Origin: a virus
Taxonomy: Duplodnaviria > Heunggongvirae > Uroviricota > Caudoviricetes
IMG/VR virus record: IMGVR_UViG_2563366928_000002
DNA length: 28,151 nt
Direction: 5' to 3' (one strand)
The notes beneath the pieces are model-generated. The model did not search any database and was not told the DNA's origin. It worked only from the letters and a program-made list of their open reading frames with translations. Position numbers and translations under genes: made by a program. Positions 2,883 through 22,465 of this stretch are shown here, piece by piece. Numbering within the stretch: position 1 is the stretch's first letter; every line of letters starts with the position of its first letter.

Positions 2883-3164
2883 TCACATCCAGCCACGAAG
2901 TTGATGCTCAACAGCAACCGCGTATTCATCGAATAATGACGATATTTGCGTATCCTTAATAATGCGCACGTTTACAAAATATCCATCTTCCTTAACACAT
3001 ACCGGTTCGCCATCTTCAGTCAGCTCTCCGGTTTCTTTGTACACGTTACCTATCACATCAATCAGAATATCATCCTGCATCGACTCGTCATTATAATAGC
3101 CAATACTTCCCATAAAGGCCGAAAAGTCGGCCCTGTCGGCAAATTTGAGTGTTAAATCTTTCAT
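2883..3164 (-). CDS. hypothetical acidic 93-aa protein, translationally coupled to the tail fiber gene
   Basis: ATG overlaps the stf stop (TAATG); GGGGGAG SD upstream; no recognisable family; sits where tfa would be expected. Confidence 0.45.
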   Translation of the reverse strand: MKDLTLKFADRADFSAFMGSIGYYNDESMQDDILIDVIGNVYKETGELTEDGEPVCVKEDGYFVNVRIIKDTQISSLFDEYAVAVEHQLRGWM

Positions 3165-5386
3165 TAGATTGACTCCCCCATCTGAGCATCAGTCAATGCC
3201 TTGTGCCAAATACGCAGATTTCGAACGTGTCCAAATAGGTGACGGTTGCCGGATGATGATTGACCACCAATATTAATGAAGCCTCCTGTATATTTGTGTT
3301 TTTTATAAGGAGAAACTACCTTAGCACCAATATTACCGTTAACCACAACACACAATTCTCGACTTTCTGTGAATCTAAAGCCGATAATGCTTTTTCTCTC
3401 TGGTCGTTCTATAACGCTTTTATATTCTATTTTAGTGCCTTTACCATTTGTAATGATTGCGCGTGCTCCCAAAGATGTATACCCCAAATACATATAACTT
3501 TCATCTGCAATTTCAGTTGTATCTCCCGTAGTGGAAATATTAAGAATACGTGCGCTACCTTCTTTGTTTGGCGATTCATCCCAATTGGTATTAACTTCTG
3601 CTAATGAACTAATAGCGGGATTGCACCAATTTAGAGAAATGGGGACCGTTACAATATCGCTGGCGCGTGTTACAGGGGATGCGCCTGTTATAATAAACGA
3701 TGAAGCGCATGCCCCACCTTCAACTTGAGGGGTCGCAATATAAATATAATCATCCGCGCCAGTGCCCACTCCTTTTGCCGGGGCATACTGAACCATTCCA
3801 CCTATCATATTTTCTGTATCAAGTGCCTTAATTGTCGCCTCAAAAAAGATCCATTTGCTTGCTTCATCTTTAACAGCCCTTGCAGTAATGCGATTAGCGG
3901 CACCACCCGTCTTATCAATAGATAAATCTGTCGTATTTAAGTAAGCGTCACCTAAGAATGTGTAGGTAGAACCATCATAGTTTTCAAATCGTAATCGGCA
4001 TCTTAAATTTGGAGTGCCACTTTGCACCCTGCATGATATGGTTACATACTTTTCTCCGCCTGTTACATCAAAACCTTTACTGCCGGAAACGGTTACTATG
4101 TTAATCGCTGAAATTTGCCCTACCATTTCTGGTTTTAATGTAAATTTTGCGTACTGGAATCCGAAATCATCTACACCTGATGCACTTAAGATCATATTTG
4201 ACGACTTGTTCCATTTAGTCGGATTTGTTGAATTGATTAGCAGGTTAGTTCTTTGCCCCTCAATAAGCAGGCCATCACGTTTAAATCGTGGCTCGTCAAT
4301 GGCAGCCTCTGTCAGCACACCAGATTTATTAATGTAAGTTGCTTTCGATGCGCGTTTAAACTTTACAATCTTGTCGCCAGGCATTGTTATTTCATCGTCG
4401 CCAATAACAATTTTTTTATATGATGGCGAAAAGCCCGTAATCATATCCAGTGAATCATTAAACGGTATCCACACATCGGGCAACGGCTGCAAAACTTGTT
4501 TATACGGCTCCGCTGCCTGGCTTGCATACTCTCTGGCTGCGTCTTCACTTGCTTTAGCTGCTGTCTGGCTTGCTGCCGATGCTTGCGCCGAGTTCGCCGC
4601 CGCAGTCTCGCTCGCCTTTGCGTTGGTTTCACTGGTTTTTGCTGCTTTTTGACTGTTAGCTGATGCAGTGGCAGAAGCAGCCGCCGCGCTTGCAGAACTG
4701 GCTGCGGCACTCTCGCTTTGGGCCGCTGCATCCTGACTGCTTTTCGCCGCAGTTTCACTGGCTTTGGCATTCGTTTCGCTGGTCTTCGCTGCCGTCTGGC
4801 TGGACTTTGCGTTGGTTTCGCTTGTCGTTGCGGCTGTCTCGCTATTTTTCGCGTTGGTTTCTGATTTTTTAGCTGCTGTTGCGGAGTTTGCCGATGCAGT
4901 CTGCGAGGCCGCTGCCGCCTGTGCGCTGTTAGCTGCATTCGTTTCTGAGGTTTTCGCCGCGTTCTTCGATGATGCCGCTGCAGTTTCGGATTTCTTTGCC
5001 GCCGCTGCGCTCTGAGAGGCGGCTTCAGCGTTGCGTGCCGCTTCTTCCACCATTTCCTCAAAACGACGCAATGCCTCCGGCATGACATCATCTTCCGTCA
5101 TGGCACCGAGAAAATCATTCAGCGTACCTGGTCTGGAACCTTCATAGACGGTAATGGTTCCGGCATGTGAAGGCGGAAAACCTTCAACCAGCAGGGTGAC
5201 GCTGTACTGGCTATACTCAACATCCATGCTGTAACGCCCGGCTTCATCCGGATTTTCAGAGGCCACCGTGTTGACCAGTACCGTGGTGCTGTTACGCTTT
5301 GCCTTCAGTTGAATAGTGCAGTTCTGTATTGGTTTTCCCGCACCATCTTTCAGCACACCTGAGATTTTTACTGCTGCCATATCCAC
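3164..5386 (-). CDS. stf: side tail fiber protein (lambda Stf-like N-terminus, divergent receptor-binding C-terminus)
   Basis: 740 aa; N-terminus MAAVKISGVLKDGAGKPIQNCTIQLKAKRNSTTV closely matches recalled lambda Stf; Ala/Ser-rich SETNAK-type repeats; C-terminus NLRIWHKALTDAQM looks like a lectin/LamG-type fold rather than the lambda Stf C-terminus. Confidence 0.85.
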   Translation of the reverse strand: MDMAAVKISGVLKDGAGKPIQNCTIQLKAKRNSTTVLVNTVASENPDEAGRYSMDVEYSQYSVTLLVEGFPPSHAGTITVYEGSRPGTLNDFLGAMTEDDVMPEALRRFEEMVEEAARNAEAASQSAAAAKKSETAAASSKNAAKTSETNAANSAQAAAASQTASANSATAAKKSETNAKNSETAATTSETNAKSSQTAAKTSETNAKASETAAKSSQDAAAQSESAAASSASAAAASATASANSQKAAKTSETNAKASETAAANSAQASAASQTAAKASEDAAREYASQAAEPYKQVLQPLPDVWIPFNDSLDMITGFSPSYKKIVIGDDEITMPGDKIVKFKRASKATYINKSGVLTEAAIDEPRFKRDGLLIEGQRTNLLINSTNPTKWNKSSNMILSASGVDDFGFQYAKFTLKPEMVGQISAINIVTVSGSKGFDVTGGEKYVTISCRVQSGTPNLRCRLRFENYDGSTYTFLGDAYLNTTDLSIDKTGGAANRITARAVKDEASKWIFFEATIKALDTENMIGGMVQYAPAKGVGTGADDYIYIATPQVEGGACASSFIITGASPVTRASDIVTVPISLNWCNPAISSLAEVNTNWDESPNKEGSARILNISTTGDTTEIADESYMYLGYTSLGARAIITNGKGTKIEYKSVIERPERKSIIGFRFTESRELCVVVNGNIGAKVVSPYKKHKYTGGFINIGGQSSSGNRHLFGHVRNLRIWHKALTDAQMGESI
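4540..5040. repeat. tandem degenerate ~36-nt coding repeats inside stf (Ala/Ser/Thr-rich fiber shaft)
   Basis: Reiterated GCTGC/TTTCGC/GGTTTC motifs encoding K(T/S)SETNAK(A/S)SETAA units; also generates spurious antisense ORFs. Confidence 0.7.
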
Positions 5387-6092: not shown

Positions 6093-6111
6093 CGTATATG
6101 GGTTATAAAAT

Positions 6112-6951
6112 TCAGCTGATACTGATGCCTGCGGTGGCTTTCTTCATCACCACAACCAGCAGATCGCTGATACTTGCTGTGGGATACCAGTCATTTACCA
6201 GCCATGCTGACACCGAAAACTCCAGCGTCATGTGACCGTGACCGGCAGGCATATCAATAACGCCACTGTAAATCAGCGTATTATCCAGCGCGGTACGGTT
6301 ATAAATTTCAGCACCGTTTTTCCGCACTATCAGACGGCATGAGGAGTAAATATCAGTATGCTCTCTCTCATGTTTAGCGCCGCTGAATGCCACCGCCGGA
6401 ATAACAATCTGCCGGTCAAACGGCTGATCGTCATAAACCCTGACGGTAATGGTCCCTGATGGCCACCGTTCCGGTGCACGGGAGTCCCGGGGGAAAGCTT
6501 TGCCCACTGTTTTAACGAGATCGCCTTCAATCTGGTTCGCGGACAGTTTTCCCAGAACCCGACAGTTCTCGTTAATCGTGACGTTGTTGAGCGTCCCGGA
6601 GTTCGCATTCACGTTACCACTGATATCCGCATTTTTAGCAGTCAGCTTTCCGTCCGGTGTCAGGGAAAATGCCGGTGGATTTCCACCACTGGTAATGGTG
6701 GGGGCCGTCAGGCGCTTCAGGAACACGTCGTTCATGAATATCTGGTTGCCCTGCGCCACAAACATCGGCGTTTCATTCCCGTTTGCCGGGTCAATAAACG
6801 CGATACGATTGGCGGCAACCAGAAACTGACTCAGTTTGCCTTCCTCTGTATCCTCCATGCTGAGGCCAATACCCGCGACATAATGTTTGCCGTCTTTGGT
6901 CTGCTCAATTTTGACAGCCCACATGGCATTCCATTTATCGTTGGCATCCTT
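6112..6951 (-). pseudogene. J: C-terminal remnant of tail tip/host specificity protein J, 5'-truncated by the IS3-family insertion
   Basis: [108 protein letters not shown] matches recalled lambda J C-terminus; the track ORF start (6963) lies inside the IS terminal repeat. Confidence 0.8.
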
Positions 6952-6959
6952 TGTAGTGG

Positions 6960-9862
<2,903 letters not shown>

Positions 9863-15576: not shown

Positions 15577-19257
<3,681 letters not shown>

Positions 19258-19283
<26 letters not shown>

Positions 19284-19803
19284 TCAGCAACCCCGGTATC
19301 AGTTCATCCAGCGCGGCTGCTTTGTTCATGGCTTTGATGATATCCCGTTTCAGGAAATCAACATGTCGGTTTTCCAGTTCCGGAAAACGCCGCTGCACCG
19401 ACAGGGGGATCCCGTCGAGAATACTGGCAATTTCACCTGCGATCCGCGACAACACGAAAGTACAGAATGCGGTTTCCACCACTTCAGCGGAGTCTCTGGC
19501 ATTCTTCAGTTCCTGTGCGTCGGCCTGCGCACGCGTAAGTCGGTGGCGTTCGTACTCAATAGTCCCTGGCTGGAGATCTGCCTCGCTGGCCTGCCGCAGT
19601 TCTTCAACCTCCCGGCGCAGCTTTTCGTTCTCAATTTCAGCATCCCTTTCGGCATACCATTTTATGACGGCGGCAGAGTCATAAAGCACCTCATTACCCT
19701 TGCCACCGCCTCGCAGAACGGGCATTCCCTGTTCCTGCCAGTTCTGAATGGTACGGATACTCGCACCGAAAATGTCAGCCAGCTGCTTTTTGTTGACTTC
19801 CAT
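19258..19803 (-). CDS. Nu1: terminase small subunit Nu1
   Basis: 181 aa; MEVNKKQLADIFGASIRTIQNWQEQGMPV... matches lambda Nu1. Confidence 0.95.
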
Positions 19804-19980
19804 TGCTCATTCCACGGACAAAAACAGAGAAAGGAAACGACAGAGGCCAAAAAGCTCGCTTTCAGCACCTGTCGTTTCCTTTCTTTTCAGGGGGTATTTT
19901 AAATAAAAACATTAAGTTACGACGAAGAAGAACGGAAACGCCTTAAACCGGAAAATTTTCATAAATAGCGAAAAACCGCG

Positions 19981-19992
19981 AGGTCGCCGCCC
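19981..19992 (-). promoter_or_regulatory. cos: cosN, the 12-nt cohesive-end site (lambda-type cos; cosB toward Nu1, cosQ on the other side)
   Basis: Plus-strand AGGTCGCCGCCC is the reverse complement of lambda left end GGGCGGCGACCT; flank CGTAACCTGTCGGATCACCGGAAAGGACCCGT is the reverse complement of the lambda right end. Confidence 0.9.
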
Positions 19993-20191
19993 CGTAACCT
20001 GTCGGATCACCGGAAAGGACCCGTAAAGTGATAATGATTATCATCTACATATCACAACGTGCGTGGAGGCCATCAAACCACGTCAAATAATCAATTATGA
20101 CGCAGGTATCGTATTAATTGATCTGCATCAACTTAACGTAAAAACAACTTCAGACAATACAAATCAGCGACACTGAATACGGGGCAACCTC

Positions 20192-20425
20192 ATGTCAACG
20201 AAGAACAGAACCCGCAGAACAACAACCCGCAACATCCGCTTTCCTAACCAAATGATTGAACAAATTAACATCGCTCTTGAGCAAAAAGGGTCCGGGAATT
20301 TCTCAGCCTGGGTCATTGAAGCCTGCCGCCGGAGACTGTGCTCAGAAAAAAGAGTTTCTTCTGAAGCAAACAAAGAAAAGAGTGATATTACTGAATTGCT
20401 CAGAAAACAGGTCAGACCAGATTGA
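20192..20425 (+). CDS. ynfO: YnfO-like small protein with predicted ribbon-helix-helix N-terminus
   Basis: 77 aa; basic N-terminus then RNIRFPNQMIEQINIALEQ (beta-strand plus helix typical of RHH folds); located next to cos/Nu1 as ynfO is next to nohA in Qin. Confidence 0.6.
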   Translation: MSTKNRTRRTTTRNIRFPNQMIEQINIALEQKGSGNFSAWVIEACRRRLCSEKRVSSEANKEKSDITELLRKQVRPD

Positions 20426-20482
20426 AGCAATTTAGATAATCGTGCAGACTACGCCCCCTCATATCACATGGAAGGTTTATCT

Positions 20483-20893
20483 ATGGATCAGGTAGTCATT
20501 TTTAAACAAATATTTGATAAAGTTCGAAACGATTTAAACTATCAATGGTTTTATTCTGAGCTAAAACGTCACAATGTCTCACATTACATTTACTATTTAG
20601 CCACAGAGAATGTTCATATTGTATTAAAAAATGATAATACAGTGTTATTAAAGGGCCTAAAAAACATTGTGTCTGTCAAATTTTCAAAGGATAGGCATCT
20701 TATAGAAACGACCTCTAATAAGCTGAAATCCAGAGAGATCACATTTCAGGAATACAGAAGAAACCTTGCTAAAGCAGGAGTTTTTCGGTGGGTTACAAAT
20801 ATCCACGAACAAAAAAGATATTACTATACCTCTGATAATTCATTACTATTTACTGAAAGCATCCAGAAAACTACACAGATCTTACCACTCTAA
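20483..20893 (+). CDS. ydfO: YdfO/YbcV-like DUF1398 protein
   Basis: Track ORF 20468..20893; ATG at 20483 has GGAAGG about 7 nt upstream, giving 136 aa; immediately downstream of the ynfO-like gene. Confidence 0.6.
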
Positions 20894-21044
20894 ACCATAA
20901 CGTCCGGCTTCTCTCACTCCTGAGCCGGACTGCATTGGTTTAATAAAAACCATCAACAATTGTGATTTAGATATTCGGAACCATTCAAATATAACAAAAC
21001 CCCGTAAAAACGAGGTTTATGGATAAATTTTATTATTGAATACA

Positions 21045-21218
21045 TCAGATTAAATTAATCTTGACATCATAGCTTTCAAGACCCGTCATTTTTTCCCGTG
21101 CGGTAAACTGAATACTGGTAACTTCTTTCCCGGTCTTTTTCTTAAGTTCAATAATTTTTTTTGTTATATATTCAGAAATATCTGCTTCTGCTTTTGTTTT
21201 TAAGTTTTCAATATTCAT
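21045..21218 (-). CDS. gnsB: GnsB-family small protein (57 aa)
   Basis: Hand translation MNIENLKTKAEADISEYITKKIIELKKKTGKEVTSIQFTAREKMTGLESYDVKINLI, codons checked against coordinates; below the ORF-track size cutoff. Confidence 0.7.
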   Translation of the reverse strand: MNIENLKTKAEADISEYITKKIIELKKKTGKEVTSIQFTAREKMTGLESYDVKINLI

Positions 21219-21389
21219 CATTTCCTCTTTTAGTCTGTTATGACTTTCCAGTTACACAGTAAGTCGATTATATGGTGCAAACGTGTAAAAGATAAGATGA
21301 AACATCGCAATAATCAACATACGATAGTCTAAATTTTACACAAACAGACAAAGAGAATTTTCCTGAATTATCAATGCAATAGCATCAAA

Positions 21390-21581
21390 TCAACTCAAGA
21401 GCCTTATTGCTGCTTCCAGAATTTCTTCTGAAGTAACATGTCGATCCGCGGCTACATAAATGACTTTATGATCTCCGGTCAGAGATGGAAACCCTGCGGC
21501 CATTACAGTAAGGTGTGTTTTTTCGCCATTTGGATATTCACGCATGATGGTGTTAACTCCAGTCATCGCTGGCACTACCAC
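21390..21581 (-). CDS. ynfN: YnfN-like small protein (start may be the internal MREYPNG at 21545)
   Basis: Track ORF of 63 aa; C-terminal 51 aa MREYPNGEKTHLTVMAAGFPSLTGDHKVIYVAADRHVTSEEILEAAIRLLS. Confidence 0.55.
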   Translation of the reverse strand: MVVPAMTGVNTIMREYPNGEKTHLTVMAAGFPSLTGDHKVIYVAADRHVTSEEILEAAIRLLS

Positions 21582-21663
21582 TGCTGGTTCAGAGTTAAAA
21601 AAACTATGATTTTTTTCATGATGTTACCGTAGTATGTGAGTATCCATCGAATAGACACCAAGC

Positions 21664-21683
21664 AAAAAAGCTCCCGAAGGAGC
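21664..21683 (-). terminator. rho-independent terminator downstream of cspI
   Basis: GCTCC-CGAA-GGAGC hairpin followed on the minus strand by TTTTTTGCTTGG. Confidence 0.55.
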
Positions 21684-21890
21684 CTTCATTTTCACTTTTT
21701 TAAATCCAACGACAGACGGCTGGCATTTAAGTATTGTGAAATATTATCAAATGTAATCATCATTGATTTACAAAAGATACATTTTGCCCCGAAAGGATTC
21801 ATGTCAGAAACATCAAAAGATGATGTTCTATACTGGGAACCATGACAACACGGGCATCTAAAGTGAATATGGTTTGTAATATTGTCTACC

Positions 21891-22103
21891 TCAAAGCGCC
21901 ACTACATGAACAGCGGCAGGACCTTTAGGTCCGTTCTCAATACCAAATTCAACTTCCTGATTCTCAGTTAATGTTTTGAAATCGTTGCTCTGAATTGCTG
22001 AGAAATGGACAAACACATCTTTGCTGCCATCTTTCGGCGTGATGAAACCAAAACCTTTTTCAGGGTTAAACCATTTCACTAAACCAGTCATTTTGTTAGA
22101 CAT
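21891..22103 (-). CDS. cspI: cold shock protein CspI (CspA family)
   Basis: 70 aa; [38 protein letters not shown] with RNP1/RNP2 motifs. Confidence 0.9.
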
Positions 22104-22465
22104 AATTATTACCTTTTGAAGAAATTAGCCCTTGGGCAGAATGGTCCGAAAAAAAATATCAGAGAGAAAAACCAACAAGGAAATCTCAAGAGGTACAAAT
22201 AATAAAATTATAACAATGACTGCTTCAGATAAATTTGTAACAAACCAGAACACCATTAACGCATGATTAACCACCCATAGCAAGGATTACTTTTGTAAAG
22301 AAAAACACAGCAATGAAAGAATAGCTTTATTTATTAATAAAACGTGTCATTCTGATTAAGACCTTTTATCTTACCCTTAAGATTTCAGGAATTTTGGCTC
22401 ATGGAAGAGTCCTTTTTATTTAAATTTTACATTCCGCGATGTAAATGTTCCGATTTAATATTACC

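Follow-up and report, generated by a model that had tools for sequence, protein, structure and literature searches.

The closest described relatives of the locus analysed here lie in the cryptic prophages Qin and DLP12 of Escherichia coli K-12 and at the right end of phage lambda, which is the first DNA to enter the cell. Both genes at the locus, ynfO and ydfO, are already catalogued E. coli prophage genes annotated in K-12, and a preceding sequence-only reading correctly stated that the family pair recurs in the K-12 cryptic prophages; we find it as ynfO-ydfO in Qin and as ylcI/ybcV in DLP12. The gene order in lambda is a 64-aa YlcI-type open reading frame, lambdap79 (a ybcW homolog on the late strand), lambdap78 (a DUF1398 gene) and bor. 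Silencing by CRISPRi and earlier deletions have shown lambdap78 to be nonessential and dispensable for plaque formation (PMC10695390). In a 2026 preprint, lambdap79 is reported to activate the Vulcan NADase defence and to be deleted in lambda escapers, probably by recombination with Qin (10.64898/2026.09.04.749371). Genomic SELEX placed a binding site for PdhR, AACAGGTCAGACCAGAT, in the K-12 'ynfO > ydfO' region, and a related PdhR box lies upstream of ybcV, the mRNA of which decreased 10-fold in a pdhR deletion mutant (PMC7660256). The mRNA of ydfO has been measured in K-12 and responds to ionic liquid and to DicC induction, and overexpression of YdfO is cited as raising oxidative-stress resistance (PMC4077768). 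In one K-12 TraDIS study ydfO carried no transposon insertions and was classed as 'essential only by TraDIS', a list that also includes several other prophage and hypothetical genes (Goodall 2018); we suspect that the gap in ydfO possibly reflects insertion bias in AT-rich DNA. No function is described for ynfO or ydfO in the literature searched, in agreement with the earlier view of the pair as uncharacterised, and the main text of Wang et al. 2010 mentions neither gene.

The window, i.e., the whole 28,151-nt stretch of DNA that was analysed, is a Qin-like lambdoid prophage of E. coli, with positions 19900-21300 being 100% identical to several RefSeq chromosomes. We consider that ynfO and ydfO are two independently mobile accessory genes occupying the variable slot that separates the lysis cassette from cos in this prophage, with no functional pairing between them, and give this reading a probability of roughly 0.6. 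The features on which the analysis draws are the following:

17358-19283, minus strand: terminase A, late gene
19258-19803, minus strand: Nu1/nohA, late gene
19981-19992: cosN cohesive-end sequence, GGGCGGCGACCT as read on the minus strand, identified by sequence, with flanks 98% identical to lambda and DE3
20090-20122: 13-nt inverted repeat, ATCAATTATGACG / CGTATTAATTGAT, 70-100 nt upstream of ynfO, found by repeat search
20192-20425, plus strand: ynfO, 77 aa, YlcI/YnfO family (Pfam DUF3950, NCBIfam NF041551)
20355-20408: Qin-type joint, with about 50 nt in place of the approximately 560-nt lambda segment carrying lambdap79, placed by alignments to lambda
20406-20422: PdhR-box-like palindrome AACAGGTCAGACCAGAT, overlapping the last ynfO codons, about 60 nt upstream of the ydfO start
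20435-20440, plus strand: GATAAT, a possible -10 hexamer read from the sequence
20483-20893, plus strand: ydfO, 136 aa from the PGAP start, DUF1398
20891-20942, plus strand: stem-loop after ydfO, inner stem 20902-20910/20922-20930, without a U-tract

All neighbours of the two genes are encoded on the minus strand. To one side lie Nu1, terminase A and the head genes, to the opposite side gnsB, ynfN, cspI, Rz, R and S. The plus-strand two-gene cassette opposite the late operon that had been described from the sequence was thus recovered, with open reading frames at exactly the positions given (20192-20425, 77 aa; 20468-20893, 141 aa), as was its cos-proximal position, with ynfO lying 200 nt inside cosN. 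The DE3 record annotates a 'cos site' in the matching flank sequence, and megablast aligns positions 19900-20354 to both ends of phage lambda at 98% identity, with lambda nt 1 corresponding to window position 19992 and lambda nt 48502 to 19993. GC content is 31-37% in the ynfO/ydfO region vs. 52-56% in the terminase genes. More broadly, positions 20300-22400 form an AT-rich island (31-40% GC) that contains gnsB, ynfN, ynfR, ymcF and cspI, with cspB and cspF further on; in the most similar genome, ynfN carries a frameshift annotation. DUF1398 relatives also occur beside cold- or stress-linked genes elsewhere, as ycgX lies next to bluR, and a Kluyvera copy next to an open reading frame that begins like a cold-shock-domain protein. 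At approximately 6100-9400 of the window, a truncated tail-tip gene is followed by remnants of IS3-family and IS30 transposases (according to the annotation of a genome identical over 19900-21300), so the tail region of the prophage appears to be disrupted.

The assignment of the genes to the YnfO family and to DUF1398 (YdfO) held up, since Pfam, NCBIfam and the RefSeq annotation (ynfO, ydfO) agree. YnfO belongs to Pfam PF13132 DUF3950 (E 2.7e-21, 75.6 bits, cutoff 25) and to NCBIfam NF041551, YlcI_YnfO_N (36.6 bits, cutoff 30), while YdfO belongs to PF07166 DUF1398 (E 3.2e-46, 156.7 bits, cutoff 22) and differs in 2 of 140 aligned residues from the K-12 protein of PDB entry 2HH8, an NMR structure deposited as 'hypothetical protein ydfO'. 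DUF1398 is a narrow family (194 clusters in 1.84 billion representatives in a single-sequence search) without invariant catalytic-type residues, a first scan of viral contigs with YdfO returned near-identical copies only, and the AF2 model of YdfO (pLDDT 62) was too poor for comparing folds. As for the start of ydfO, the ATG at 20483 has a GGAAGG Shine-Dalgarno sequence 7 nt upstream and the ATG at 20468, which gives the 141-aa form, has none; the spacer to ynfO is therefore 57 nt from the better-supported PGAP start, and the 42 nt reported previously apply when counting from 20468. The hairpin noted after the second gene is real (-21.9 kcal/mol, z -4.8 by RNA folding), but it lacks a U-tract and was not called by the intrinsic terminator scan.

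The consensus scan of 19800-21400 yielded no sigma-70 promoter, and thus none upstream of ynfO, where the 13-nt inverted repeat at 20090-20122 could serve as a candidate operator or promoter region. The box sequence GGTCAGACC occurs a single time in the window. Both the box and the GATAAT located about 15 nt downstream of it, the latter not called by the strict promoter scan, are conserved upstream of lambdap78, and for this reason a separate, host-regulated promoter for ydfO is likely.

The region is a mosaic, and its comparison with lambda accounts for the adjacency of the two genes. The first 49 residues of the 64-aa lambda product are identical to those of YnfO in the window. Homology to lambda breaks off at 20354 and is picked up again at about 20409 with AGGTCAGACCAGATTGAA, at the GGTCAGACC box, from where it runs on into ydfO; about 50 nt in the window replace approximately 560 nt of lambda carrying lambdap79. 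As the ynfO frame crosses this joint and ends within the ydfO upstream region, the 77-aa form arises by reading through the joint, and this type of tail is seen solely where DUF1398 adjoins. Both the adjacency of ynfO and ydfO and the tail of YnfO are thus by-products of the junction that put about 50 nt in place of the lambdap79 segment, which also explains why tails in the family are hypervariable next to near-invariant residues 1-50. An exchange between lambda and Qin that deletes lambdap79, as proposed for the lambda escapers, would give the junction seen in the window. In phage ev099, a near-identical ynfO and spacer are joined to a ydfO allele that is 75% identical in protein, an allele combination indicating that the two genes recombine as separate modules.

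Two observations that could have suggested a joint product were set aside. The 233-aa YnfO-YdfO fusion protein P0122 (cluster of 761; L005 1274-1975) reads the TGA at the junction as Trp and is a gene-calling artefact in metagenome-derived protein sets. Programmed readthrough from ynfO into ydfO was also considered, as ynfO and the ATG at 20468 share a reading frame in the window, but this shared frame is broken by a 1-nt deletion in ev099. In the lambda record itself (NC_001416), the annotated start of lambdap78 (2043-2576 of locus L002) seems to lie 41 codons too far upstream, the true start likely being MAQV. The phage record MW057783.1, named 'Campylobacter phage CJLB-4', is 100% identical to lambda in the YnfO domain and has the same 78.5% DUF1398 match as lambda; it looks like a misnamed lambda.

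The linkage between the two genes is not obligate. We fetched 80 IMG/VR contigs encoding the 49-residue YnfO N-domain, 76 of which had at least 2 kb of downstream sequence and could be evaluated. A DUF1398 gene was adjacent in 39 of the 76, lay about 700 nt away beyond a lambdap79 homolog in 6, and was missing near the domain in the remaining 31, where the next genes were bor, lambdap79 plus gnsB, or others. The position of the YnfO gene hardly changed, with a distance to Nu1 of about 389 bp in most contigs and of 387-673 bp in all except the three without a detected Nu1. The 77-aa tail type was present in all 39 contigs with adjacent DUF1398 and was found only there. In the phage collection, 153 records carried the YnfO domain vs. 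43 with DUF1398, and the 66 records named as Stx-converting phages were among the YnfO matches, with none among the DUF1398 matches. The Stx phage BP-4795 has a lone DUF3950 gene, antisense to the late genes and without DUF1398, flanked by Rz and by an HNH endonuclease/TerS/TerL module of another type. Lone DUF3950 genes also occur in PICI-like satellites. Conversely, divergent DUF1398 relatives were found at 24 loci in Kluyvera, Pseudocitrobacter, Salmonella diarizonae, Raoultella, Escherichia and Shigella, and at 24 of 24 no YnfO, Nu1, terminase or lysis gene was present within 5 kb. The Escherichia/Shigella paralog ycgX adjoins bluR, and 5076 of 5426 complete E. coli genomes have it as a solitary gene in the chromosome. 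Co-occurrence across prophages, the lack of which the sequence-only reading had beforehand accepted as grounds for giving up a functional pair, therefore fails on the 31 of 76 contigs, on the 153 vs. 43 phage records and on the ycgX singletons.

Residues 1-50 of YnfO (20192-20341) comprise a basic arm, the motif NIRFP and two helices, and residues 51-77 a variable tail; throughout the YlcI/YnfO family the N-domain is nearly invariant and the tails after residue 50 are hypervariable in length and sequence. This layout, a basic arm leading into an N-I-R-F-P strand and then two helices joined by a turn, fits the pattern of Arc and Mnt. Alignment with hhalign against the Arc sequence gave an E-value of 0.002 at only 14% probability in the register NIRFP ~ NLRWP, and that against Mnt gave 0.035 in the register NFRMP. 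The AF2 monomer (pLDDT 66) has a coil at 1-18 and helices at 19-32 and 34-74, and its top Foldseek matches, none of them significant (E 1-8), include a TCP domain, which we take to be RHH-like, ParD2, an annotated RHH protein and CopG; no significant match was obtained in PDB or BFVD (E above 0.3). Profile searches of PDB with the DUF3950 alignment found no RHH protein, and no Pfam RHH model matched YnfO, DUF3950 being the sole match at E-values up to 10. The RHH-like N-terminus proposed earlier consequently stands as a strand-helix-turn-helix pattern in the Arc register, but not as a significant profile or structure match. An RHH fold of YnfO is plausible, and most likely residues 1-50 would form an Arc/Mnt-like ribbon-helix-helix DNA-binding dimer.

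Under the reading we prefer, of two independent accessory genes, ynfO would be the fixed element of the slot, held approximately 200 nt inside the right cohesive end, read away from cos and antisense to the late operon. YnfO would act as an autonomous transcriptional regulator, presumably binding DNA and regulating its own synthesis; it would probably repress its own leftward transcription unit and may possibly modulate transcription over the lysis-cos junction. Downstream of it, ydfO would be one of several alternative cargo genes, brought along with its own upstream region (PdhR-box palindrome and -10-like hexamer), probably transcribed separately and wired to host regulation. It is not needed for phage growth, and its probable role is that of a host-physiology factor expressed in the lysogen, where it may confer a phenotype. 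The joint that removed lambdap79 would then have brought the two genes together.

Among the alternatives, one that we regard as unlikely, though not negligible, is that one or both genes are single-gene factors in conflicts between phage and host or between phages, i.e., in anti-phage defence, superinfection exclusion or counter-defence. The slot is a variable cargo region that also takes up bor, gnsB, csp genes and lambdap79, lambdap79, which is reported to activate Vulcan (2026 preprint), occupies exactly the segment that is absent here, and at the right end of lambda, which enters the cell first, ynfO precedes all other genes. Against this, neither YnfO nor YdfO matched any family of known or candidate defence proteins in PADLOC-DB 2.0 at E-values up to 1, no such phenotype is reported in the literature searched, lambdap78 is dispensable for plaque formation, and DUF1398 is also a core chromosomal gene outside prophages.

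A second alternative of similarly low probability extends the regulator role to other mobile elements. Members of a second DUF3950 subfamily are 54-67 aa long and come from Pasteurella, Proteus, Yersinia, Salmonella, Serratia and others; the subfamily is 35-45% identical to YnfO and keeps I15, R16, F17, P18, I25, F37, S38, W40, V41, C45 and L49. In PICI/P4-like satellites a DUF3950 gene stands by itself within the AlpA-to-primase operon, on the opposite strand, and in Pasteurella, Proteus, Yersinia and Salmonella three to four GTG-N6-CAC palindromes lie at conserved positions within 220 nt upstream of these genes. The palindrome clusters upstream of the lone satellite DUF3950 genes are located as follows:

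L192, 2843-2937: GTG-N6-CAC palindrome cluster
L194, 4899-4979: GTG-N6-CAC palindrome cluster
L197 and L200, 4831-4974: GTG-N6-CAC palindrome clusters

Judged by its sequence, such a cluster looks like an operator array, and this apparent array supports a regulator role for the DUF3950 family, a point that also favours the preferred reading of ynfO as a regulator gene. YlcI/YnfO might accordingly be an Arc-like repressor family shared by lambdoid phages and PICI/P4-like satellites, controlling transcription over the lysis-cos-terminase junction or mediating the cross-talk between helper phage and satellite, with ydfO and similar genes as interchangeable cargo under that control. In favour of it, the gene stands alone and antisense within a long operon in each element, the satellite genes are located behind the palindrome array, and in the phages no gene precedes it on the DNA end that enters the cell first. 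Upstream of ynfO no GTG-N6-CAC palindromes were found, the 13-nt inverted repeat being the only one there. A 9-mer, CCACGTCAA, present upstream of ynfO, recurs upstream of three of the four satellite genes (Proteus has only CACGTCAA), but it lacks the other half of the satellite palindrome and also occurs elsewhere in the window, and it was discarded as evidence. In Pasteurella phage Pmp7, a 224-aa 'transcriptional repressor' (L192 2583-3257, minus strand) is annotated antisense to a clear 59-aa DUF3950 open reading frame (3001-3180, plus strand), and the 224-aa frame looks like a miscall.

The sequence-only reading had suggested a toxin-antitoxin or anti-phage pair, which we had to abandon, as each gene is common without the other, PADLOC gave no match and the tail of YnfO is hypervariable. 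Its most specific form, a type II system in which YnfO would serve as RHH antitoxin, repressing the operon and using its C-terminal tail to neutralise a DUF1398 toxin, is now improbable. The layout invites it, with a small DNA-binding-like gene first, a short spacer and a common strand; the RHH antitoxin ParD2 is among the non-significant Foldseek matches, and ydfO is 'essential only by TraDIS'. Moreover, the 77-aa tail type is restricted to contigs with adjacent DUF1398, and a toxin-binding tail would give the same pattern, but linkage by descent explains the shared tail type. A type II system would be expected as an obligate pair, and what we found were the 31 of 76 contigs without DUF1398, the 24 singleton DUF1398 loci and the 5076 of 5426 genomes with ycgX, so that ynfO and ydfO are each frequent without the partner and the paralog is present almost universally as a single chromosomal gene. 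About 700 nt, including a gene on the opposite strand, separate the two genes in lambda and DLP12. Neither is there a conserved toxin-binding region, as the YnfO residues after position 50 are hypervariable and are made here by the joint and the ydfO upstream region, from which the last codons derive. In addition, no Pfam toxin family was matched, nor any PADLOC entry, YdfO was produced alone for its NMR structure, which would imply low toxicity, and its overexpression is cited as raising resistance to oxidative stress (PMC4077768).

It is still less probable that ynfO is no real gene and that its open reading frame is retained merely through packaging-related conservation of cos-adjacent DNA. 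A YnfO-type open reading frame is absent from the lambda RefSeq annotation, the Shine-Dalgarno sequence of ynfO is weak, and the 190 nt upstream of it are likewise well conserved among lambda-type phages. Substitutions in the 147-nt domain are nevertheless overwhelmingly synonymous; with the window as reference, contig L117 has 13 synonymous changes vs. one nonsynonymous (pS 0.39, pN 0.009), and BP-4795, where the upstream DNA is unrelated, has 12 vs. 10 (pS 0.36, pN 0.088). The domain is retained in BP-4795 and in the satellites despite unrelated flanking DNA, and the satellite subfamily has the same invariant residues. These comparisons indicate that the YnfO domain is a protein under purifying selection and no by-product of cos conservation. 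Lambda RefSeq NC_001416 contains an unannotated 64-aa open reading frame of the YlcI/YnfO family at 48110-48304 (complement; L002 3110-3304, minus strand), 200 nt inside the right end.

That YdfO is a virion head protein, as the PHROG 413 and RefSeq labels of lambdap78 have it, is the least credible alternative, since ydfO is on the strand opposite the late operon, the DUF1398 gene is nonessential in lambda and missing from most phages with the same head genes, the paralog ycgX is a core chromosomal gene, and older records label the same lambda gene 'putative envelope protein', which makes these labels guesses.

The analysis removes a tempting but wrong toxin-antitoxin or defence-pair annotation from a locus found in most E. 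coli genomes, and it marks 'head protein' as an unsupported label for lambdap78 and PHROG 413. It also reveals that phage lambda itself has an unannotated, selectively conserved YlcI-type gene beside cos, and that the Qin-type ynfO-ydfO junction is the lambdap79-less allele of a slot that harbours, according to the 2026 preprint, the trigger of a defence system.

Compared with known systems, the window is closest to K-12 Qin, with which it shares genes, order, spacing and neighbours, with nohA to one side and gnsB, ynfN and cspI to the other. The window prophage still has a complete lambda-type set of head genes, whereas K-12 Qin is truncated relative to it. The right end of lambda is similar in that its YnfO domain, equally far from cos, matches in all of residues 1-49, and in that its DUF1398 protein is 78.5% identical, with the same GGTCAGACC box upstream; it differs by the approximately 560 nt with lambdap79/ybcW between the genes and by the different tail of its 64-aa protein. 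DLP12, with ylcI, ybcW, ybcV and borD, carries the counterpart of the lambda right end. YnfO by itself resembles Arc and Mnt of phage P22 in its similar size, the basic N-terminal arm, the N-x-R-aromatic-P strand motif in the same register and the two helices after the strand, with a Gly-containing turn in the lambda-type YnfO proteins, but differs in lacking a significant sequence or structure match to them (hhalign 14%; Foldseek E above 0.3). Finally, the ydfO region is like the morons (e.g., bor and lom) in its presence or absence between collinear phages, lower GC, opposite strand and nonessential nature. At the same slot, DUF1398 is present in 45 and absent from 31 of the 76 contigs, with deviant GC (32-37% vs. 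52-56% in the flanks), and with regard to the promoter and terminator that a moron would bring along, there are the PdhR box and GATAAT upstream of ydfO, with no consensus promoter, and the hairpin without a U-tract. In contrast to the morons, ynfO keeps a fixed position, variation being confined to its tail and to the cargo that follows.
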